Positions 1,012 to 12,913 of a DNA stretch of 12,913 nucleotides are shown in pieces (the stretch's first letter is position 1; each line of letters starts with the position of its first letter). The translations under genes and the position numbers were made by a program. The notes under the pieces were generated by a model. The model was given only the letters and a program-made list of their open reading frames with translations, had not been told where the DNA came from and did not search any database. The stretch is from Candidatus Hodarchaeota archaeon. GTDB taxonomy: Archaea > Asgardarchaeota > Heimdallarchaeia > Hodarchaeales > Hodarchaeaceae. The stretch spans positions 1-12,913 of the forward strand of contig JAHQWW010000109.1 of the NCBI GenBank assembly GCA_029856365.1, in the 5' to 3' direction.

Positions 1012-1800
1012 CTATTTCAAAACCATCGTGGCTCCAATTAAAGCAAAATCTTTTGCAATATTTGACACTTCACGACGCAAACCATTAAGATAGACTTCAT
1101 TACTCCATTGTTTGGGGAAAATCTCCAAGAGGTTGGGTTTGATTCTTCGAACGCCTGGGATATTCTCCTCATATTTGCTATTTGTTGATTCAATTGAGAT
1201 TTCATTCACAAATATCTCATTATAAAATTCGGAAATGAGAACTCTCATAGGAGCAGGAGAATAGTAAAATTCTTCATAATTTTCCGTTGCTTTCTTTAAC
1301 ATAACCAAAGGTTCCTTGAGTGGAAAAACAAGTTGTGTTAATATTCTACCTCGTTCAAAAGCTCGGCGACTTTGGCCTACATAATCCTCTTGAACTTGCA
1401 ACGTATTAAAAGAGAATTCTAGGAGATTCTCACCGGCAATCATGAAATCATAGGGAGGAGGAAACACGAATGGTTCTGTACTGAAATGATTATTGAGCCA
1501 TTTTTCCTCTGGAATGACAAGGCCAGTTAAATACCTCGTGTCTGTAGTAATTGCTTTCTTCCCTACGGAAAATTTAGTCCAATATATCCCTACTCCATAA
1601 AGTAGGATATATGAAATATTAAAAAGAAGTAAACGTGAAAAATCTACAGGAATAAAGATGACACTGGATGTTTCAACGGATTCAATGTCTTGATTTTTAT
1701 AAAGCCATCTCATATCTGTTGGTTTGTCAGGATCAGAAAAGGAAATCCAATCTGAAATTACGATTAAAGATCTTAACATTCCTAAGGGTTTCTGTTTCAT
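1012..1800 (-). CDS. Hypothetical protein (262 aa)
   Basis: A 789-nt ATG-initiated ORF in AT-rich DNA is unlikely by chance. One hydrophobic stretch (LLLFNISYILLYGVGIYW); no motif recognised. Confidence 0.75.
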   Translation of the reverse strand: MKQKPLGMLRSLIVISDWISFSDPDKPTDMRWLYKNQDIESVETSSVIFIPVDFSRLLLFNISYILLYGVGIYWTKFSVGKKAITTDTRYLTGLVIPEEKWLNNHFSTEPFVFPPPYDFMIAGENLLEFSFNTLQVQEDYVGQSRRAFERGRILTQLVFPLKEPLVMLKKATENYEEFYYSPAPMRVLISEFYNEIFVNEISIESTNSKYEENIPGVRRIKPNLLEIFPKQWSNEVYLNGLRREVSNIAKDFALIGATMVLK

Positions 1801-1925: not shown

Positions 1926-2835
1926 TTACATTGTATAATTAATTATTGTTTGTATCATTCGACAAGCTGAGTACTCAGGAGTAGATGAATAAGATGAGCA
2001 ATTTTTACATTTATACACTTTTTCAACTTGTGTTTTAATCGATTTTTCTCTTTGAATTGATGAAACTATGTTGTAAAGGATATGGGGATCTTTTTTATCC
2101 ATTTTAATTAGGAAAGGGGCAATTTCAGAACGTAGGGATCTATGAGTAAAAGCACATTGGATTTTCAAAATAGGTAATTGGTGAATTTTAGAATTATTAC
2201 GGATTGTCTTTTCAGAAATTTCCGACAGAGGTTTAATTCTCAATAGCAATGATTTTCTATCAGCTGGTTTATACTCAATCTTGTCACGATAATTTTTCCA
2301 TAGATTGCCTCGAATTATATTGAGAAGTATTGTTTCCGCCTCATCTTCTAGAGTATTTCCCATTGCAATAAAATCAGCTTTGATATCCAAAGCCAAGCTC
2401 ATCATGCCATGACGGCGTAATACGCCACAAATAGCACACGGTGTAAATCCTAATCCCCGTTTATTTGATTCTTGAACCAAACTAGGTAGAGAGTAATCGA
2501 GATAATCGAGAATGAGATTTCTGAATAAAATTTATATCAGGATAATTCTGTTCAAGTTGCTTAATGACCTTTTTTCTAGCCAACTGCACTTCAGGTATCT
2601 CTTCTTCAAGGATAATAGCAGCTAACCTAGTTATTCTGAGTTTTTGCTGATATTTATGGAGAACATGAAGCATTGTGGTGCTATCTTTACTCCCTGATAA
2701 TGCAATAACAATAGGGTGGCCTCGGACACATCTTGGAATCTGGTTTAGAATTCTTTTCTCAAACTTTCGAGAGAAGCAAAAGTATTGAGGGGATTTTAAT
2801 TTGCCAAGTAAACCACAGCTACACTGATAACTCAT
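1926..2835 (-). pseudogene. ttuA: TtuA/Ncs6/TtcA-family PP-loop tRNA 2-thiolation protein, split by a frameshift near 2500
   Basis: The 5' ORF (2482-2835) has the PP-loop ALSGSKDS (canonical SGGKDS). The 3' ORF (1926-2480) has PCAICGVLRR, GNTLEDEAETILLNIIRG (canonical GHNLDDxAxT), RIKPL and a C-terminal CKNC. The halves are collinear and offset by 1 nt. Confidence 0.8.
2494..2511. repeat. 9-bp tandem repeat (TAATCGAGA x2) at the ttuA frameshift
   Basis: taatcgaga at 2494-2502 and 2503-2511. Confidence 0.9.
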
Positions 2836-3092: not shown

Positions 3093-6000
3093 CTATGGAA
3101 TTTTATGACTAAGTTCTAAGATTTTGGCTTTTTTCTCTAGCCTTCTCGCCTCACTATCATTCCCTAAATCATTCATACATTCAAACCAGATTTGATATAT
3201 CCTGGGATCTGATGGGCTGATTTGTTGGGCCTTTTTTAAAATTTGAATGGTTTTTTCAGGTTCTCTCTGATCTAAGAACATTAATGCAATTGCTAGTATA
3301 CTATTTAATTCTAAAGGATTAATGGTAATAACTTTCTCAAACATTTGCTTTGCTTTAATGTAATCCTCCATTTGATTGTAAATAAACCCCAAGGCATGAT
3401 AAACCTCTGGAGATTGGGGATAATTCTCAATAATAGGGAGAAATATTTTTAAATTATCTTTAAGAAAAAAAGCTGCTTCTTTTCTCACATTTACATTTGG
3501 ATTAGACAGTAAATCGAGAATCTTCCTTGTAATTGGTGAATATCTCGTATACGATAAGTTAATCCTTGTATCCAATAGCTGCCAAACTTGATTGCGAACA
3601 AGTGGATTCTGATCCTCCATTTTGTTAATAATTTGATTGAAAATAGTTTCATACTTCAAGTCTTTAATGTTAATACATGATAATAAAAGAGAAATAGCTT
3701 TAGCACGAGTATCATCATATATACTATTGAGAGAGTCTGTGATGACTGATAATATTTTTGGATCCAATTCATTGGTTTTAAGTAAATTATTTTGAATGAT
3801 ATTCCAAGAAATGGTTCGTATTTTAAAGGAATTGTCGTTAATGGAAGTAATTATGGCTTCTTTAATCCTGTTAAATTGTAAAGCTGAAAGATCAACGCGT
3901 TTATCGATTTCTAACAATAAACGAATGCGAATTGATTCCTGCTGACGACGCATGAGGTTAACGATTTGTAAAGGTGTACTTAATCCGATATCACTTTTGA
4001 AAATTTCCATGAATCCAAATTTATCAATGCCCTGCTTGATTTGATTCAATATTCCCTCTTGAAACTTGATCTTTATTTCATCTAAGTGGGGATGATTGAT
4101 TTTTTGGATGAAATCAAATTTATTTTCAAGATTTAACCACTTTTCTAATCGTTTATCATCATTGGTACTATCAAAGAGAAACTCCTCTATATTAAACTCT
4201 AGAAGGTCTTTCTCTAGGCTTTCAAATAAAGCATCGATTGACTGAGAGGATGTTTGGGAAGAGTCTTTGCTTTTAACTATGGGGTCAGTTAATAGATTAA
4301 TAATTATTTTTTGGAAATCCATTTCTTCTAGTGTTTTTCCACTATCTTTAATAAGAAAATGTATTAGAAATGGAATGAGCATCTCTTGCACATCCCATTG
4401 TCCTTCTTCAATTAATTGGGAGATTATTTGTGGTTCAAGAAAATTAAACAACTTTTGACTCATGAAAACGCTTAAAATTCTCTTTTTTAACTCCCTAGAA
4501 ATATTCTGTTTAGAAAGTATCTGAATAAATTGATCTCGAAGAAGATCATTGTCATTTATTATATTATAATTCTGATAAGTTTCACAGACAAACACGGCTA
4601 TTTTAGAATCAAGGTCTTCAAGATTTTCGGAAAGTTGAGAGATATACGCTGAGGTATAAGAAAAAACTTCATTATACTTAGTTACCAATTCCCATGCACT
4701 AGAAAGCACATTGGAGTCTTTATCCTCCAAAAGGGATGTGAAACTCATGAGTACAATTTTCTGATTAGGCCTCCAAAATTCAATGTCTTCATGTAAAAAT
4801 TCACAAGCATCAAATCGCACTTCTGGATTAGGATGACTAAATAATGTGATCAATTCAGAAATAAAGGTCTGATGATGGGTATCTGATAGTTGTGTTTTCT
4901 GTAACATCAACCAAGTCTTTTCCCGCACATTACGGTTTCTGTCACTAAGTAATTTAATAAGACAGTTAAAAATAGTTGGAAAATGTTTATCGTAATAAGG
5001 ATTATTTAAGAAACTGAGAAGGTTCTTTAGGGCCACATCACGAACCAACCATTTTGGATCTTCTAAAAGCCAGACGATTTTCTTAAACATATCCTCCTTC
5101 CTCTCCTTAAATGCATTGAATCGTTTAGATATAATATTACAAGCGGTTCTCCTGACTTGTTCATGTAAATCAGTTGTTAGATAGCTGATTTTTATCAGTA
5201 CGTTGTTGAATTTGACTTTATCTAAATCTAAATTTTGATTTAGTGATGTAGCAGCACTTTCTCTCACCTCCCAATTAGGGTCATCAAGGGCCGCCATTAG
5301 ACTTTCCAAAATAATTTTATTTCTCTGTTCCTTTAAGGATTGTAGAACTGGTAGTGTTTCACAGATATTCTTTCTCACACGCCATTCTGGATGCCAAAAT
5401 AGGCCAATAACCTTATCCCAGGTTCTTTGATCGTCTAAAAAACCATGTGTAACCATACTCTTTAGAGCGATTTTCTGAACACGCCAAGATGGATCAGATA
5501 ACCTACATTCCAAAATTTTCCCGATATTATTTCTATATTGATCAAAATTTAATATTTGATTCAATATTTCACATGTTAATCTACGAACTTCACGATTCTC
5601 ATCGTTAGATAATATTGAAAAAACATCAATTACTTGTTGAGAAAAAAAATCTGGATTATTCCAGAAAATTATGCAAATAGCTTTCTTCACGTCACTGCCC
5701 TGATTAACTACGGTATCCAGAATCCCAGTTAAAACTTCAGGGAATTTTTCACAAAGATCTTTTAAGATAAAAATGAGAAATCCTTGCGCATAACTTGCAT
5801 TGCTAGTTAAAATTTTTATTAATGTATCAGTCCTAGATTCAATGAAAGGTAATAAAAAAAATAATTTTGTGCAACGAAACCAGAAATCCTGTTTTGTTTC
5901 CTTTTGACTAAATACTTCAGTCAGTAATTCAATAAGATCCTCTTTAGACTCTGAAGAATATTCAATGAAGAAGCTCAGAATTTCTTCAGCCTTATTTCGA

Positions 6001-6155
6001 ATATAATGATTTTCATGATTTAATAAATTAAAAACTTTATTTATAATTTCTTTATCTGCTAAAAGAGATTCATTAACGATACAGAAATCAAGCGCTCTTA
6101 ATTGCTTGTCAAAGGATTCATTTGTCAATCCTGTTAAAATCGTCTCTAATTCCAA
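3093..6155 (-). CDS. Large HEAT-repeat alpha-solenoid protein with about 3 C-terminal TPRs (1020 aa)
   Basis: Recurring HEAT signatures at about 39-aa spacing: LSNDENREVRR, LSDPSWRVQK, WHPEWRVRK, LDDPNWEVRE, DLHEQVRR, LEDPKWLVRD, LSDRNRNVRE, HPNPEVRF, EDQNPLVRN, LSNPNVNVRK. The C-terminus (about 3093-3415) is TPR-like (PEVYHALGFIYNQMEDYIKAKQMFEKVITINP). TTG start. Confidence 0.88.
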   Translation of the reverse strand: MELETILTGLTNESFDKQLRALDFCIVNESLLADKEIINKVFNLLNHENHYIRNKAEEILSFFIEYSSESKEDLIELLTEVFSQKETKQDFWFRCTKLFFLLPFIESRTDTLIKILTSNASYAQGFLIFILKDLCEKFPEVLTGILDTVVNQGSDVKKAICIIFWNNPDFFSQQVIDVFSILSNDENREVRRLTCEILNQILNFDQYRNNIGKILECRLSDPSWRVQKIALKSMVTHGFLDDQRTWDKVIGLFWHPEWRVRKNICETLPVLQSLKEQRNKIILESLMAALDDPNWEVRESAATSLNQNLDLDKVKFNNVLIKISYLTTDLHEQVRRTACNIISKRFNAFKERKEDMFKKIVWLLEDPKWLVRDVALKNLLSFLNNPYYDKHFPTIFNCLIKLLSDRNRNVREKTWLMLQKTQLSDTHHQTFISELITLFSHPNPEVRFDACEFLHEDIEFWRPNQKIVLMSFTSLLEDKDSNVLSSAWELVTKYNEVFSYTSAYISQLSENLEDLDSKIAVFVCETYQNYNIINDNDLLRDQFIQILSKQNISRELKKRILSVFMSQKLFNFLEPQIISQLIEEGQWDVQEMLIPFLIHFLIKDSGKTLEEMDFQKIIINLLTDPIVKSKDSSQTSSQSIDALFESLEKDLLEFNIEEFLFDSTNDDKRLEKWLNLENKFDFIQKINHPHLDEIKIKFQEGILNQIKQGIDKFGFMEIFKSDIGLSTPLQIVNLMRRQQESIRIRLLLEIDKRVDLSALQFNRIKEAIITSINDNSFKIRTISWNIIQNNLLKTNELDPKILSVITDSLNSIYDDTRAKAISLLLSCINIKDLKYETIFNQIINKMEDQNPLVRNQVWQLLDTRINLSYTRYSPITRKILDLLSNPNVNVRKEAAFFLKDNLKIFLPIIENYPQSPEVYHALGFIYNQMEDYIKAKQMFEKVITINPLELNSILAIALMFLDQREPEKTIQILKKAQQISPSDPRIYQIWFECMNDLGNDSEARRLEKKAKILELSHKIP

Positions 6156-6205
6156 TATCCTTAATTCCTTTACTTTTGTCGAATATTAAATGAAGAAATT
6201 CTTTC

Positions 6206-7135
6206 TTATTTAAATAAACTAATTTGATTAGATATGGAAATTATTTGATCGTAAATTGTAGATGTTTCTTCTTGAAGCAATTTTTCCGTCTCATTTGAAA
6301 TTAGGATCAGTGTTGCTAATCCATTTTCTAAAAAATCGGCAAAACATATTTGATCTATAACTTCAGTAGAAAAAAACCTTTTATGGTTTCCTCCATTATT
6401 AGTTAAACGTTGAACAGATGATTCAAATAATTTCTTTATTTGGATTGAAGATAATTTGGGTGGATTATCTTTATTTTCATTTACATATAATAAAATACCC
6501 TCCTTTGTCATAATCTGGACATGATTGACTATATTGGGAAGACTTTGAATGAATTCATCTGATATTGAGCATAAATCAGCTTCAATGTCCAAGATTTCAG
6601 CAAAAATTTTTCCAATGACCATATAAATTGACTCAGAAAATACTGATGTTTTGTGAAACTGTAAATCTTTTGAAATTTCTGAACAAAAGTAACTCGTGAT
6701 ATATTCAAAGACATTATCAATTAATCTTTCAGGGAGAAGATCCATTTTATGGAGAAAAATGTGAACATTTGCCTTCGGACTGAATTGGTCGAGTTTTTCT
6801 AATGAGAGTTCTAGATAGTACTTCGCTCGAGAAAGGTCTACTACTTGAAGAGGCTCCAGAACGAAAATAAACACATCAACATCACTAAAAACAAACTCTG
6901 AAAGATCTCCTGTAAAACGATCCAAAAAACGCGTCTGTCCACCTAAATCAAATATATTTAATTCCGTACCACAAAGCATCTTTCTTTTTCTTTGATAATT
7001 AATTGTAGCGTCATATTTTCCCCCGAGTTGAGGAATTGTACCCTCAATAACACTGCTAATAATGGTAGACTTTCCTGACTCTGCTAAACCTAGAAAAACG
7101 ATCTTTTTACTTGGGATTTGGTGTTGAGAAGACAT
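6206..7135 (-). CDS. Gtr1/RagA-like small GTPase with a C-terminal roadblock/longin-like domain
   Basis: G1 GLAESGKS, G2 ATINY, G3 DLGGQ, G4 HKMD and G5 TSVF. HKMD and TS[IV] are typical of Rag/Gtr GTPases. The roughly 125-aa tail has a roadblock-like pattern (VNHVQIMTKEGILLY). Confidence 0.85.
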   Translation of the reverse strand: MSSQHQIPSKKIVFLGLAESGKSTIISSVIEGTIPQLGGKYDATINYQRKRKMLCGTELNIFDLGGQTRFLDRFTGDLSEFVFSDVDVFIFVLEPLQVVDLSRAKYYLELSLEKLDQFSPKANVHIFLHKMDLLPERLIDNVFEYITSYFCSEISKDLQFHKTSVFSESIYMVIGKIFAEILDIEADLCSISDEFIQSLPNIVNHVQIMTKEGILLYVNENKDNPPKLSSIQIKKLFESSVQRLTNNGGNHKRFFSTEVIDQICFADFLENGLATLILISNETEKLLQEETSTIYDQIISISNQISLFK

Positions 7136-7626
7136 TTTGTATAATCATTTTGAATGAGATTAATAACATTAACCAATCTCAAATTATTAGGTGGCTAAAA
7201 GAAAAGCTAAATTATAAGACAAAATTCACTTTATTGATCAATAGGAGGTGAAAACTGTCTATTAACTAGTTTTGTAAGATATAATTAAAATTATAAAAAG
7301 AAAAAAATAATCAATAATTTTGTAAGTAAAATAATTGAATTTAGGGACAGATTATCTAGAATTCTTCTTAAAATCTTAAGCCTTAGCTATCCCAGCGAAT
7401 ATACGTATATTATTATAACAAGGATTCTGTTTCAATTCATTAAATCCTAATATATTAACTAATATCTGTTTTAAAAACCAGATACTTAATAATGGTGAAC
7501 GGTTTGGGTAATATTTGGTTGTATTTTTACTTTTTTATAAGCCTATTCCATATTCCTTCAAAGAAATCATTTTTCTTCAGTTTATCTCCTATTTTAAGAT
7601 CCCTGAGAATTTCGGAGAGGTAATTT

Positions 7627-10600
7627 ATGATGAGTCAGGAAAATCTGAGTTTATTTCTGTTAATAAGCATTTTATCTTTAAATACATTAGTGATGACTTC
7701 TTCTTTACAAAAAGAGAATTACTTAGAATCAGATGAAAAAATCCCAGCTTTGTTACGGGGAATTGGCCTCAAAGGACAGAAAAATGAAATTTATCATCAA
7801 GTACCTCGACTGCTAAATTCTTCAAAAATTTATTCTCAAATTAACCAATCTTATTCAAATAGAATTCATTTTGCCCAATCACAATATTCTGTACCTGGTT
7901 GGGTTGATACAAGGTGGAAATATCGGAAAAATATTTCCATTTTACCCTCTCAAGTTTTTGGTGATTTCATTGATTTTCCTGTGTTGATAGAACTATTCGA
8001 TGAGGATCTTCGTGATCATGCCCAAGTTACGGGTAATGATATTTTCTTTACTAATGAGCAGGGAGTGAAATTAGATCATGAAATTGAGCTCTATGATAGA
8101 CAATACTCCTATACACAAGCACACCTCGTAGCCTGGATGAAAACAAATCTAACTGATCTCGAAGGGGCTTATATTTCGATGTATTATGGCAATCCTAGTG
8201 CAGGTGTACAGGAAAACCCAACAGGAGTGTGGAATACCAATTATGTAGGTGTTTGGCATCTCTCAGAAGACCCCACAGAGGTGATCCATGATAGTACGTC
8301 CAATACTAATGATGGGACATCTCAAGGCTCTATGACTCCTACTGATCAAGTAGAGGGAAAAATTGACGGTAGTATTGATTTTGATGGAGATAACGATTAT
8401 ATTGATTGTGGGAACGATAGCTCACTGGACATCACGGGAGACATCACACTACAATTCTGGGTAAAGGCTGAGAATTATATAAATGACCCTGATCTGCTTA
8501 CCAAAGGGGATTACACCCAGGCATATTCATCATTTATTTATGATGCTGATGATGACAATAGTGGAGGTGTAATTTATTTTAAGCTTAATAATCATGAATT
8601 AATAAGCGTTAATTCTCTTACTATTGGAACCTGGTATTATATAACATGTGCAAGGGAGAGTAATTCAATGAAGATATACATTGATGGAGATGTGGACTCT
8701 ACTGACACCTATTCAAACCCCATTGAAACCATACCAGATTCATTAACAATTACAAGAAGTCCTGATAATCTTGATGGTATCTTAGATGAAGTGCGTGTAT
8801 CTTATACAGCTCGTTCAGAGAATTGGATCAAAACAGAGTATGCTAATCAATATAATCCAATTTCATTTTATACCATTACCTCTCAAGAAGAGTCACCAAT
8901 TTCATATTACTGGCCCTTTCCTACGTTTAAATATAGAACGAACATAAGTATCGACTCAACAAAGGTGTTTGCCGATCTTACCAATTTCACTGTGTTAATT
9001 GATCTGAATGATAGTAATCTACACGACCAGGACAAAGTTCAGACAGACGGTGACGATATTATGTTTGCTATTGATTCTATAAAATTAGATCATGATATCG
9101 AAACTTTCGATCAAACTGGAAATGGCACTCATGCTCATCTAATTGCATGGGTAAGGGTGCCAAACCTGTCAGGTTCAACTAATACAACAATTTCAATGTA
9201 CTATGGAAATAACGCTATTAGAAGTCAAGAAAATCCTGAAGGGGTTTGGGACAGTGATTATGGAGCTGTCTGGCATTTAAACGATGATTTTTTAGATTCA
9301 TCATCTAACAATAATAATGGTACGAATAGTGGTTCGACTAATACAGTAGGAAAAATGGCAAATGCTCAGGATTTCGATGGAGTCGATGATGATATAGATA
9401 CAGGATCAGGTAGCAGTATGGATAACATTTTCAATAATGGAGGTACTATCAGCGCTTGGATCTATCCAACAGGATGGGGAGAGGGAAATTTTGGGCGAAT
9501 TATAGATAAGTCAACAGCTACAGACGGTTCTAATGGCTGGGGATTCTGTATAGACAATGATGGCTTTCCTAATCAGCATTTATTATTCTTTAGAGATTTT
9601 AGTATATCGCGAGGGTTATGGTATACACCAGATGATTCAATCAGTCTTAATCAATGGCAATATGTGGTCGTATCTTATGATGATACCGACAAACAAAATG
9701 ATCCATATGTGTTTATCAATGCTTTATCTCAATTATTAGTTGAGGAACCTACACCAGATGGAGATTCAATAGATGATTCAGCCCAATCTGTACATATAGG
9801 AAATTTTGCGGGAGATACCACTCGAACATTTGATGGTATCATCGATGAAGTCCGCATTTCTCATGTGATGCGTTCTGCTGATTGGGTTAATACGGAATAT
9901 TATAATCAATTCGATCCTGCGAATTTTTATTCAATAGGAGAGGAAGAGGAACATTCTAGATGGTGGGCTGATGCCTCTTTCACAAATCGCAGAGACATTG
10001 TAATTAAAAGGGAAAAAGTCTCTACTCATTTGACAAATTTTCCAGTTCTTATTGATATAACATCCACAGATTTTAAACAAGGGGAAGTCCAAGCTGATGG
10101 TAAAGATATTATGTTTACTGATGATTCTGGATCAATCTTGGACTTTGAAGTTGAATATTTCAGCCAAAATGTTGCGGAAGGGCATTTAATTACTTGGATA
10201 AGGCTAAATGTATCGAATAAAGATGACACCATCGTCTCAATGTATTATAGTAATGATCAAATAGTGCAATCACAGGAGACTCCTGCAGAAGTGTGGGATT
10301 CTAATTATGTAGGGATTTGGCATCTTCAGGAATCACTTGGGAACGCTCAGGATTCAACATCCTACGGACAGGAGGGGGTAATAAGCGGAGGTGTTACTCA
10401 AGGAGCTTCTGGTTTCATCGATGGAGCATATTATTTTGATGGAGTAGATTGCAATGTAAGCATGGGAGACCCTTCTGATGGTCACCTTGATTTCGGGACA
10501 GGCAGTTTTACAGTTGAAACTTGGATAAATAGGGATTCAACAATGAGTTCAACCCAGTACGGCGGGATCTTCAAAGGAAATGGTGACGTTAATGATAATG

Positions 10601-12913
10601 AAGGCTGGTTATTACGATTTAAGGGAAGTGATAGTGTTAGATTTAGTGCGGGAGATGGATTAGCAAGTGTATTTAATATACATCAGTCATCAATCCTTGT
10701 AGATGAAACTTGGATGCATTTTGTTGGGGTTCTTGATAGGAGTGCGGGAGAGGCTTATCTCTATAAAGATGGCCAGAAAATTGCAACTGATACTGCAACG
10801 AATGGAGATATTGATAGTAATTACTTATTCCGAATAAGCGAGGATTGGGATAACGCTTTTCATTTCAAAGGACTTTTTGATGAAGTTCGTCTTTCTAACA
10901 TAGCACGTTCTTCTGATTGGATTACTACTGAATATCAAAACCAGTACAATCCAACGAGTTTTTATTCCGTGGGTTCGGAAGTTATCTTTGATACTAAACC
11001 ACCTATTATCAATGATTTTGGCGTTGATGATCCTGGAACTGGCGCAGGAAAATTCTGGGCTGATGTATCTGACAGTACTAGTGATGTCCAAACAGTAAAA
11101 ATCACGATTAATGAAACTGAATACTCAATGAGTCAAAATGCCTCTGGGTACTGGATTTATCAGATGGGGGTAGTATGGCAAGGATATTATAAGTTCTGTA
11201 TCACTAATGCTAGTGATTTCCTCGGTAATTACATTCAAACAAACTCAAGCTTGAAAACCTATACATTCACTTACGATCTGGCAGCTCCTGATGTTTTTAA
11301 ATGGAAATATACTACTAGTACGAACACTTTTCGAGCCAACGTAAGTGATGGCTGGGGAGAAGTAGATACGGTAATTGTGAACGTCACTGATCATTCAAAA
11401 ATATTACCAGACCCAGCCACACAAATCATGCACTTCTATCAAGATTTTGGAGGAGCTGGTTTAGGGTACATCAACGATACCCTTATAATGGCTAATGGCG
11501 ATATTGAATTTAAGATCTTTGTTAATGATACATCTGGTAATAGTTTTCTTTCCTCAGCCCATCCTGGTGTCGTCTGGGTGAACCATGCTCCCATCGCTGA
11601 AAATTTGACCCTCAGTCCTTCCCCTTTATATAGTAACGAAACGTTAGTGCTCAAGTATGATTATGATGACGAAGATAATCACGGTGAAAGCGGTACTGAG
11701 ATCCGTTGGTATAAAAATGGGGTTCTTCAAGCCTCTTTTAATGACAGCACTCAAATCGATGATGCCTATCTCATTCCTGGGGATGACTGGAATGTGACGG
11801 TCCGCCCAAAAGATGGCGAAAAGTTTGGGGAAATAAACACCTCATTGACCGTCACTGTACTCAATACTCCTCCAGTAGTTCAAGTTGTTACACTAAATCC
11901 TATAACTGCATACACCACGTCTACTCTCAGTATTACCAACACAACCTCTGATCATGAGAATGACGACCTTAGTTATTATATCGAATGGTATTGGAATTCA
12001 CAACACAATTTCTCATATGATAATCTCCTCACGATTACCCCTGACAAGACAACCAAGGGAGAAAGCTGGCACTGCCGAATTCGGGCCTTTGACGGCACCA
12101 GTAATTCCAGTTGGCTTTCCTCTGCTCCCATCATTATCCAGAATACTGTTCCCCAAGCAGTGAACTTGACTATTACCCCTGATCCTGCGTATACTAATGA
12201 TATTCTTGTCGCCAGCTGGGATATGGCGGATGCGGATGGGGATGCTGAAAATAAAAGTGCTGCCATTATTTACTGGTATAAATATGGTGATTTACAACCC
12301 CTTCTGAATAACTGTGTATCGATTAATCCTGGGAACACTAGTAAAGACCATACATGGTTTTTCCGAATCCAGGTCTTTGATGGGACAGATTATTCCGCTC
12401 TCCCACCGACTCAATCTGGAACCATCACGATTAGTAATTCTGTACCTATTGCTCAGAATGTTTCAATTATACAACCTGCTCCCCTCACAACAGATGATCT
12501 GCAAGCTGACTGGGATTATTTGGACATTGATAATGATAACTATGGTCCGCCACTCATTAAATGGTATACCAACAGTAGTGGGATCTGGCAGCACCAATCT
12601 AGTTATGATGATTATGATACTTTACCTGCGAGTGCAACCACCAAGGGTCAATACTGGTGTTTTGGTATTCAAGTGTATGATCAGGATGACTACGCTGCTG
12701 AAGTCAACTCGTCTCCTGTGTTAATTCTCAACACGCCACCTGAAATTACTAACCTGGAGTTGACCAGTACTCCGACAACTACCGTTGATCTAGTTGCGAC
12801 ATGGGAATCCAATGATAATGATTCTGATTCGCTGACATTTTATGTTACTTGGTATTTGAACGGCTTACTGAACGCTACTTTGCAAACATCCAGTATGAAC
12901 TCTACTCTTACTT
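7627..12913 (+). CDS. Giant secreted/cell-surface protein with 3x DUF2341+LamG modules and tandem Ig-like repeats; partial, runs off the window
   Basis: Frame +1 reads open from ATG 7627 (after in-frame TAA 7621-7623 and GGAGAGGT just upstream) to the window end, giving >=1762 codons. N-terminal hydrophobic segment LSLFLLISILSL. Repeated motifs W..YRxxI.I, FPVLI, DGxDIxF, LDHEIE, MYYGN, GVWHL, FDGxDD, DGxxDEVRxS and RSxxWIxTEYxNQ. Absent from the ORF track, presumably because it has no stop codon in the window. Confidence 0.93.
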   Translation, partial: MMSQENLSLFLLISILSLNTLVMTSSLQKENYLESDEKIPALLRGIGLKGQKNEIYHQVPRLLNSSKIYSQINQSYSNRIHFAQSQYSVPGWVDTRWKYRKNISILPSQVFGDFIDFPVLIELFDEDLRDHAQVTGNDIFFTNEQGVKLDHEIELYDRQYSYTQAHLVAWMKTNLTDLEGAYISMYYGNPSAGVQENPTGVWNTNYVGVWHLSEDPTEVIHDSTSNTNDGTSQGSMTPTDQVEGKIDGSIDFDGDNDYIDCGNDSSLDITGDITLQFWVKAENYINDPDLLTKGDYTQAYSSFIYDADDDNSGGVIYFKLNNHELISVNSLTIGTWYYITCARESNSMKIYIDGDVDSTDTYSNPIETIPDSLTITRSPDNLDGILDEVRVSYTARSENWIKTEYANQYNPISFYTITSQEESPISYYWPFPTFKYRTNISIDSTKVFADLTNFTVLIDLNDSNLHDQDKVQTDGDDIMFAIDSIKLDHDIETFDQTGNGTHAHLIAWVRVPNLSGSTNTTISMYYGNNAIRSQENPEGVWDSDYGAVWHLNDDFLDSSSNNNNGTNSGSTNTVGKMANAQDFDGVDDDIDTGSGSSMDNIFNNGGTISAWIYPTGWGEGNFGRIIDKSTATDGSNGWGFCIDNDGFPNQHLLFFRDFSISRGLWYTPDDSISLNQWQYVVVSYDDTDKQNDPYVFINALSQLLVEEPTPDGDSIDDSAQSVHIGNFAGDTTRTFDGIIDEVRISHVMRSADWVNTEYYNQFDPANFYSIGEEEEHSRWWADASFTNRRDIVIKREKVSTHLTNFPVLIDITSTDFKQGEVQADGKDIMFTDDSGSILDFEVEYFSQNVAEGHLITWIRLNVSNKDDTIVSMYYSNDQIVQSQETPAEVWDSNYVGIWHLQESLGNAQDSTSYGQEGVISGGVTQGASGFIDGAYYFDGVDCNVSMGDPSDGHLDFGTGSFTVETWINRDSTMSSTQYGGIFKGNGDVNDNEGWLLRFKGSDSVRFSAGDGLASVFNIHQSSILVDETWMHFVGVLDRSAGEAYLYKDGQKIATDTATNGDIDSNYLFRISEDWDNAFHFKGLFDEVRLSNIARSSDWITTEYQNQYNPTSFYSVGSEVIFDTKPPIINDFGVDDPGTGAGKFWADVSDSTSDVQTVKITINETEYSMSQNASGYWIYQMGVVWQGYYKFCITNASDFLGNYIQTNSSLKTYTFTYDLAAPDVFKWKYTTSTNTFRANVSDGWGEVDTVIVNVTDHSKILPDPATQIMHFYQDFGGAGLGYINDTLIMANGDIEFKIFVNDTSGNSFLSSAHPGVVWVNHAPIAENLTLSPSPLYSNETLVLKYDYDDEDNHGESGTEIRWYKNGVLQASFNDSTQIDDAYLIPGDDWNVTVRPKDGEKFGEINTSLTVTVLNTPPVVQVVTLNPITAYTTSTLSITNTTSDHENDDLSYYIEWYWNSQHNFSYDNLLTITPDKTTKGESWHCRIRAFDGTSNSSWLSSAPIIIQNTVPQAVNLTITPDPAYTNDILVASWDMADADGDAENKSAAIIYWYKYGDLQPLLNNCVSINPGNTSKDHTWFFRIQVFDGTDYSALPPTQSGTITISNSVPIAQNVSIIQPAPLTTDDLQADWDYLDIDNDNYGPPLIKWYTNSSGIWQHQSSYDDYDTLPASATTKGQYWCFGIQVYDQDDYAAEVNSSPVLILNTPPEITNLELTSTPTTTVDLVATWESNDNDSDSLTFYVTWYLNGLLNATLQTSSMNSTLT
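7891..10980 (+). repeat. Three tandem DUF2341+LamG protein modules of about 340 aa
   Basis: Modules at about 7891-8892, 8908-9950 and 9961-10980, ending TEYANQYNPISFY, TEYYNQFDPANFY and TEYQNQYNPTSFY. Confidence 0.85.
11581..12913 (+). repeat. At least 5 tandem Ig/cadherin-like repeats of 93-98 aa
   Basis: Repeats start at NHAP 11581, NTPP 11863, NTVP 12142, NSVP 12436 and NTPP 12730. Each has a DxD/ExD-like loop and WY; the four complete ones also have a W...[IV]..xD strand. Confidence 0.8.

Follow-up and report, generated by a model that had tools for sequence, protein, structure and literature searches.

The stretch of DNA analysed here, referred to as the window, comprises positions 1 to 12,913 of contig JAHQWW010000109.1 of a Candidatus Hodarchaeota archaeon (assembly GCA_029856365.1). 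On its reverse strand lie the two consecutive genes that are the subject of this analysis. The upstream gene (6206-7135) has an ATG start and encodes P0001, a Rag/Gtr1-type GTPase of 309 amino acids (aa), whereas the downstream gene (3093-6155) encodes P0002, a solenoid of HEAT and TPR repeats of 1020 aa, for which the TTG start is the first start codon past an in-frame stop. Between them lies a 50-nt intergenic spacer (6156-6205), read directly from the sequence. Shared strand, GTPase-first order and gap are as the initial annotation of this DNA described them. The source genome (4.24 Mb, 84% complete) contains about 10 Rag-like genes of about 300 aa, and the nearest database proteins carry the labels Hodarchaeales, Hodarchaeota or Heimdallarchaeota.

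For the family and architecture of P0001, 'RagA-like', the term chosen in the initial annotation, is a fair label. More specifically, residues 11-182 match the Pfam family Gtr1_RagA (PF04670) with 92.4 bits (cut-off 22; E 3.8e-26), and this family outscores Arf, Roc and Ras by a wide margin in the same scan. A sequence search against all solved structures returned, below 1e-3, exclusively Rag proteins: RagA (1.4e-15) and Gtr1 (3.5e-15), followed by RagC, RagD and Gtr2 (1e-6 to 1e-4). In this search, the E-values for RagA and Gtr1 are about nine orders of magnitude better than those for RagC and Gtr2. Identity to RagA is about 19%. The motifs GLAESGKST, T44, DLGGQ (G3), the Rag-type HKMD (G4) and TS align with the corresponding motifs of RagA, and the G1-G5 residues are unchanged across an alignment of 64 relatives.

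The AlphaFold (AF2) model of P0001 (predicted local distance difference test, pLDDT, 87.1; predicted template modelling score, pTM, 0.87) divides the protein into a G domain (residues ~1-185; 6581-7135, reverse strand) and a roadblock-type C-terminal domain (residues ~186-309; 6209-6580, reverse strand), the latter with the order alpha-beta-beta-alpha-beta-beta-beta-alpha over residues 185-306. The best match of this model in Foldseek is RagA as solved in the Raptor-Rag-Ragulator complex (6u62_B), with a template modelling (TM) score of 0.82 over 306 columns, and full-length superposition on RagA and Gtr1 gives TM scores of 0.74-0.82. The crystal structure of a lokiarchaeal RagA-like protein (8yl2) also matches the fold (E 1.5e-17).

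P0002 matches the Pfam families HEAT (1e-33) and HEAT_2 (6e-28) and, at residues 917-947, TPR_8/TPR_1, which fall in a TPR block spanning residues ~908-1010. No WD40, caspase-like or kinase domain was matched in the Pfam scan of this protein. Its AF2 model (pLDDT 87.8) consists of helices throughout, with dips in confidence at residues 605-611 and ~700-720. Four sections can be distinguished in the model, all on the reverse strand: an N-terminal PR65-like HEAT horseshoe (residues 1-605; 4341-6155), a low-confidence insert (residues 612-720; 3996-4322), a second HEAT block (residues 727-900; 3456-3977) and a TPR cap (residues 902-1018; 3102-3452). The scan and the all-helical model together bear out the earlier description of a HEAT-TPR solenoid devoid of WD40, caspase-like and kinase domains.

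Structure searches with P0002 (Foldseek, Atlas shape search and VIA) returned flat lists of generic HEAT, ARM and TPR solenoids. Among the fold matches are CAND1, karyopherins, the A subunit of PP2A (PP2A-A, or PR65), the HEAT regions of mTOR, the trunks of adaptins and COPI (AP-1, AP-3 and beta-COP) and importin-alpha, and no specific solenoid family was found for P0002 by PDB sequence search, Foldseek, Atlas or VIA. The best overall match is PR65, which aligns with residues 25-570 at a TM score of 0.69 when normalised by target (VIA Z 15.7; root mean square deviation 6.8 over 515 aligned residues). Because the match list is flat, we take this likeness as one of fold class only.

One relative carries an interrupted version of the solenoid gene. 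In genome G001 (contig C112; loci L018/L021), the orthologue is broken near residue 125 by one in-frame TGA into open reading frames (ORFs) of 125 and 893 aa, and this may be either a broken copy or a sequencing error.

The two genes are found together well beyond this contig. Linkage was counted over the loci with readable upstream DNA, among which identity of the solenoid ranges from 76% down to 32%. The GTPase gene lies directly upstream of the solenoid gene, on the same strand, in 12/12 of these loci. Adjacency that recurs at this rate is far beyond chance neighbourhood, and the synteny proposed as a check in the initial annotation is retained across these loci. The spacers between the orthologous genes range from -1 (a 1-nt overlap) to 62 nt. 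Even the three most divergent solenoids (32-38% identity), once traced to their contigs, proved each to be directly preceded by a Rag-like gene. The downstream flank of the pair varies between loci and holds a 262-aa orphan, a tRNA thiolase gene, a Rag-like fusion of 727-732 aa or other genes. In the window, the spacer contains a Shine-Dalgarno-like stretch, AAGGA(A), a few bases ahead of the TTG and is free of T runs of five or more. Judging from the short gaps, the lack of oligo-T in the spacer and the Shine-Dalgarno-like stretch, the two genes are very probably transcribed as one unit.

The solenoid is present in 9/24 genomes of the order Hodarchaeales. Because several of the genomes devoid of the pair are 93-99% complete, this patchy distribution is probably real. 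Searched with a solenoid profile, 1.84 billion representative proteins yielded only about seven full-length clusters together with fragments; past those clusters, only single HEAT or TPR stretches within much longer repeat proteins were matched.

To place the GTPase among its paralogues, a maximum-likelihood tree of 47 Rag-like proteins was computed. The 11 solenoid-linked GTPases form one long-branched clade (ultrafast bootstrap, UFBoot, 99; Shimodaira-Hasegawa-like approximate likelihood ratio test, SH-aLRT, 96). It meets its two closest groups in an unresolved three-way fork: a widespread paralogue, and a clade of two members from the Rag gene cluster of contig L073 described below. The widespread paralogue evolves slowly, occurs in nearly all of the 23 genomes with a match and shares 40-44% identity with P0001; the window's own genome carries its copy on contig C96. 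Matches closer to P0001 are confined to solenoid-bearing genomes, and the solenoid is found only where the linked clade is found. Since the group is defined by the linkage itself, the tree demonstrates a single origin and joint inheritance of the two genes rather than an independent association.

As judged from these sequence comparisons, the linked GTPase is specific to its lineage and evolves fast, branching off a paralogue that is kept universally. Its presence in 9/24 genomes on such a side branch makes the pair look like a lineage-specific invention and not an ancestral arrangement. It is therefore unlikely that a eukaryotic arrangement such as Rag-Raptor descends from this pair, and the suggestion in the initial annotation that the pair foreshadows one is not supported. 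A stronger form of the same idea would make the solenoid itself an archaeal orthologue or forerunner of Raptor/Kog1, of the HEAT region of TOR or of another eukaryotic Rag partner. Such a relation might be read into the mTOR HEAT regions and other eukaryotic solenoids that appear among the many generic fold matches, but these reach a TM score of at most 0.43 when normalised by query, in flat lists led by PP2A-A, CAND1 and karyopherins. Furthermore, the solenoid contains no caspase-like RNC, WD40 or kinase domain, its full-length clusters number only about seven among 1.84 billion proteins, and the GTPase beside it is a paralogue specific to this lineage. We consider this origin extremely improbable.

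We used complex prediction to assess direct binding between the two proteins. The input comprised solenoid residues 1-650, the full GTPase, GTP and Mg, with alignments for both proteins. The predicted complex obtained interface scores (ipSAE) of 0.70, 0.70 and 0.66, and all three controls scored 0.00. In calibration, the score mark was reached by 58/80 solved complexes and by 2/110 mismatched pairs, counts that apply only roughly here because custom alignments and the additional GTP and Mg were used. At least 82% of contacts are in common between runs, and the pLDDT of the partner is at least 81. The pair modelled in this way, as the initial annotation had proposed, is accordingly predicted to bind directly, at 0.70 against 0.00 for the best control.

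The confident contacts define a predicted interface. On the solenoid they fall on HEAT repeats 2-6 (residues 50-54, 93-97, 121-130, 155-166, 189-200, 225, 232 and 333), which delimits a predicted docking surface for the GTPase at residues 50-333 (5157-6008, reverse strand). On the GTPase they comprise residues 37-39, 95-106, 117 and 133-153. By the secondary structure of the AF2 model, these are the first residues of the switch I loop, the beta4-alpha3 loop with the beginning of alpha3, the loop following G4, and alpha4. The roadblock domain and switch II are absent from the confident contacts, where an unlisted residue is to be read as uncertain and not as excluded. The predicted hydrophobic core sets L96, L133 and Y149 of the GTPase against F93, Y122, G125, F129 and W165 of the solenoid, and it is kept in 11/11 gene pairs.

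Conservation is elevated at this surface. Among ten divergent orthologues, the contacted solenoid residues have a mean identity of 0.64 compared to a background of 0.49, a difference matched by 35/20000 random residue sets and by 541/20000 sets drawn from the local region 40-340. Seven contacted residues are invariant (Q124, G125, K158, W165, E189, L193 and E196). A candidate case of co-variation, in which solenoid position 162 is I or M together with L at GTPase position 101 in the close group, and W together with mostly F or Y elsewhere, represents a single evolutionary event and was not counted.

Several points weigh against direct binding. The complex score is the confidence of the predictor itself and no measurement, and part of it may reflect a learned likeness to GTPase-solenoid pairs, since Rag-Raptor, Arf-adaptin and Ran-karyopherin complexes have already been solved. 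The interface conservation is not fully independent of the prediction, since the predictor was given the same alignment. Clade-specific residues are not enriched at the GTPase interface (3/24, compared to 23/309 overall). Neighbouring genes generally seldom pass as binders. Finally, no fusion of GTPase and solenoid was found in a search for longer GTPase-containing proteins, which returned just two longer Rag-like proteins of 548 and 597 aa, although such an absence is weak evidence.

Some of these points would fit a reading in which the two proteins are linked but not bound, that is, co-expressed for one pathway, perhaps one tied to the giant surface protein encoded next to them, and never forming a complex. 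Conserved gene order alone is no proof of contact, only 7/44 blind neighbours pass in the complex predictor's own test, and fused versions of the two proteins were not found. Against this stand the score of 0.70 with controls at 0.00, the conserved interface residues and the strict adjacency with tiny gaps across the family. We judge a mere linkage of this kind to be improbable.

If the proteins do bind, the face that is used bears on the function of the complex. The initial annotation proposed a nucleotide-dependent effector unit. In its classical form, the solenoid would bind only the GTP form through switches I and II and relay a signal, in the manner of Raptor with RagA, adaptins with Arf1 and karyopherins with Ran. 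This mode is consistent with the conserved linkage and the predicted binding; the complex was modelled with GTP and Mg, and the confident contacts include residues 37-39, at the N-terminal edge of switch I. Furthermore, the catalytic Gln67 and all G motifs are kept, so the GTPase would be expected, on its sequence, to cycle. However, the contacts lie mostly on the alpha3/alpha4 side and in the post-G4 loop, and no residue of switch II (~63-83) is listed. Raptor contacts RagA via switch I and the interswitch region, and thus on a different face. With only three contacted residues at the start of switch I and the remainder mostly off the switch face, the proposal of a nucleotide-dependent effector is weakened, and we regard a classical effector as unlikely, though worth serious attention.

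Alternatively, the solenoid could act on the GTPase as an exchange factor, a dissociation inhibitor or a folding or holding factor. Helical-repeat proteins are known to regulate or chaperone GTPases, as TBCD does for Arl2, SmgGDS for Rho and Rap, and Ric-8 for G-alpha. The predicted contact takes in the loop after HKMD (133-135) and alpha4, beside the base-binding site, and such proximity to the guanine-specificity loop would be compatible with regulation or chaperoning. Pairs of this kind typically have a dedicated one-to-one partner whose gene immediately follows that of the GTPase, and the Arl2-TBCD structure 9edt is present among the fold matches of the P0001 G domain. On the other hand, the solenoid has no sequence or fold match to a known exchange factor, its matches being to generic HEAT proteins only; neither a P-loop nor a switch II contact is predicted; and P0002, at 1020 aa and with its TPR cap, is larger than would be expected of a protein that only regulates. 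A role of the solenoid in regulating or chaperoning P0001 appears to us quite unlikely.

Taken together, we lean somewhat towards the reading that the pair is a conserved two-gene unit of some Hodarchaeales, made of a catalytically competent Rag/Gtr1-type GTPase and its own dedicated HEAT/TPR scaffold, the two binding each other directly. According to the model, the G domain would be parked on HEAT repeats 2-6 of the PR65-like horseshoe, docking through the beta4-alpha3 loop together with the first turns of alpha3, and through alpha4 together with the loop past HKMD (G4); the start of switch I would add a minor contact. The roadblock domain would be left free, presumably to dimerise as in Rag/Gtr; eukaryotic Rag GTPases are obligate heterodimers joined via their roadblock domains, and candidate partners for P0001 could come from the roughly 10 Rag-like paralogues of the window's genome. 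The rear HEAT block and the TPR cap would likewise be left free to hold other proteins, with P0002 in a putative scaffold role. Effectively, the complex would be a GTPase-bearing scaffold in which GTP or GDP might control either the binding of the solenoid or the action of the loaded scaffold. Because the modelled contact occupies chiefly the alpha3/alpha4 side, the complex is likelier to be constitutive or partly nucleotide-sensitive than to act as an effector that reads the switches.

The surroundings of the pair add several features. Upstream of the GTPase gene, an AT-rich intergenic region of 491 nt (7136-7626), presumed to be the promoter region for both flanking genes, separates the pair from a divergently transcribed gene for a giant DUF2341/LamG surface protein (7627-12912, forward strand; >1762 aa, the frame still open where the window stops; Laminin_G_3 1.2e-47, DUF2341 1.9e-14). 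Homologues of this protein adjoin the pair in 8 loci. The surface-protein gene is divergent from the pair in G011, G015, G016, G017 and G020; it lies upstream on the same strand in G001 and 5 kb downstream in L073, and G005 has a weak convergent match. The family is large, being found on about a dozen contigs of the window's own genome and including one open frame of 6884 aa (contig C5). Because the loci are related by descent, the association between pair and surface protein is a lead and not a demonstrated link.

Downstream of the solenoid gene, a 257-nt gap contains a candidate box C/D small RNA (2838-2920) suggested in the initial annotation; at gathering thresholds, Rfam matches nothing in the window. 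Next comes a gene for a PP-loop tRNA thiolase (NcsA/TtuA/TtcA-like; 1926-2835, reverse strand), split into ORFs of 117 and 184 aa, of which the second matches NCBIfam NcsA (3.5e-20). The frame changes at ~2480-2484, and the orthologue in G015 (L013) is one intact ORF of 305 aa, so the split thiolase is either a pseudogene or an assembly error. P0006, a protein of 262 aa with no family match (1012-1800, reverse strand), shares 83% identity with the proteins encoded immediately after the solenoid in G011 and G020. Since the more distant loci lack it, P0006 may belong to the unit as a third gene, though within the close group only. Near the start of the window, the 180-aa protein P0003 (214-756, forward strand), earlier described as a pseudo-GTPase, has a weak Ras-family match (E 0.0036) below the cut-off. 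It had also been considered as a third member of the system, a role that finds no backing in the relatives' loci examined, where no homologue of it lies beside the pair.

Further Rag-like genes occur in clusters, both in the window's genome and in a relative. In the former, the region 29000-43000 of contig C96 (L061) encodes Rag-like proteins of 300 aa (reverse strand), 334 aa, 332 aa (degenerate), 288 aa (without assignment), 309 aa (the universal sister paralogue) and 184 aa. This cluster is probably the organism's core Rag-like system.

In assembly GCA_054390175.1, contig L073 (251 kb), the solenoid gene lies within a block of five to six Rag-like genes. The order in this cluster (504-15569) comprises an 801-aa Rag fusion, a 313-aa Rag protein, the solenoid, a 321-aa Rag protein, Rag-like proteins of 304 and 303 aa, an orphan of 273 aa on the opposite strand and a DUF2341/LamG protein of 4066 aa. 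In the window's genome, the paralogues corresponding to those of this block are scattered over contigs C96 and C12.

A further group of proteins, 727-735 aa long, carries an N-terminal Rag-like G domain followed by about 400 extra residues with no family match. Genes for such fusions lie directly downstream of the solenoid gene in G016 and G017 (L063 6431-8614 and L064 8061-10259), and the homologue in the window's own genome (contig C12; L062 2882-5089, reverse strand) is divergent from the best-scoring Rag-like gene of 300 aa. As a relative of the solenoid, the C-terminal extension of the 735-aa fusion was rejected (hhalign probability 0.3%; Atlas gave no usable match).

Because the solenoid of L073 sits in a block of Rag genes and surface proteins are found beside the pair in nearly every locus, a more ambitious picture can be drawn. 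The pair might be the core that remains of a larger Rag machinery in archaea, with a Rag-like dimer and the HEAT/TPR scaffold serving as a GTPase-controlled adaptor that directs export, placement or turnover of the giant surface proteins. We regard this adaptor as a long shot; if true, it would amount to a prokaryotic GTPase-solenoid sorting device at the cell envelope.

Asgard archaea encode dozens of eukaryote-like small GTPases, almost none of which has a known partner. P0001 gains here a dedicated and strictly co-inherited partner with a specific predicted interface, so that the role of an archaeal Rag protein could be examined using two recombinant proteins. The role of Asgard Rag-like proteins is unknown according to Tran et al. 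(2024; PMC10933270), who also report that GTPase genes of MK-D1 are generally not in operons with regulator genes and that gene layout rarely reveals partners. The Rag-like GTPases described for Asgard archaea (PMC10933270; structures 8yl2 for LokiRagO and 8zla/9m28 for LokiRagM) share the GTPase-roadblock architecture of P0001. They differ in that a HEAT partner is unreported in that paper, and the clade of P0001 is specific to Hodarchaeales. No published HEAT partner for an Asgard Rag GTPase was found in our literature searches, the broadest of which yielded papers on mTORC1 only.

Compared to the eukaryotic systems, P0001 resembles RagA/B and Gtr1 (PF04670) in its build of G domain and roadblock domain, in the HKxD form of G4 and in its best sequence and fold matches. 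The pair resembles Raptor/Kog1 in that the partner of the GTPase is an alpha-helical repeat protein, but the caspase-like RNC and the WD40 domain of Raptor/Kog1 are absent from P0002 as judged by Pfam and the all-helical model, and the predicted contact on P0001 is on the alpha3/alpha4 side, in contrast to the switch I/interswitch face used in Rag-Raptor. P0002 shares with PP2A-A (PR65, 15 HEAT repeats) the fold of residues 25-570 and a HEAT consensus of the DxxWxVR type. It differs in scoring 26.1 on PPP2R1A-like_HEAT (cut-off 27), in having no 2AA_helical match and in carrying 400 extra residues with the TPR cap.

Arf1 with AP/COPI, Ran with importin-beta and Arl2 with TBCD offer an analogy, as each places a small GTPase on N-terminal HEAT repeats in a manner that P0001 and P0002 may share. 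The GTPase family is a different one in these systems, however, and so is the GTPase face from that predicted here. Neither Adaptin_N nor the importin-beta N-terminal domain matches P0002 in Pfam at E up to 0.1, and the structural matches to karyopherins and adaptins are generic (TM score at most 0.31). The likeness to Rag-Raptor, Arf-adaptin, Ran-karyopherin and Arl2-TBCD is therefore one of working principle, P0002 standing outside the solenoid families of these systems. Eukaryotic trafficking and TOR signalling depend centrally on GTPases paired with alpha-solenoids, and the present case shows that such a pairing can arise within archaea; because the pair is a lineage-specific offshoot, it probably arose there independently.

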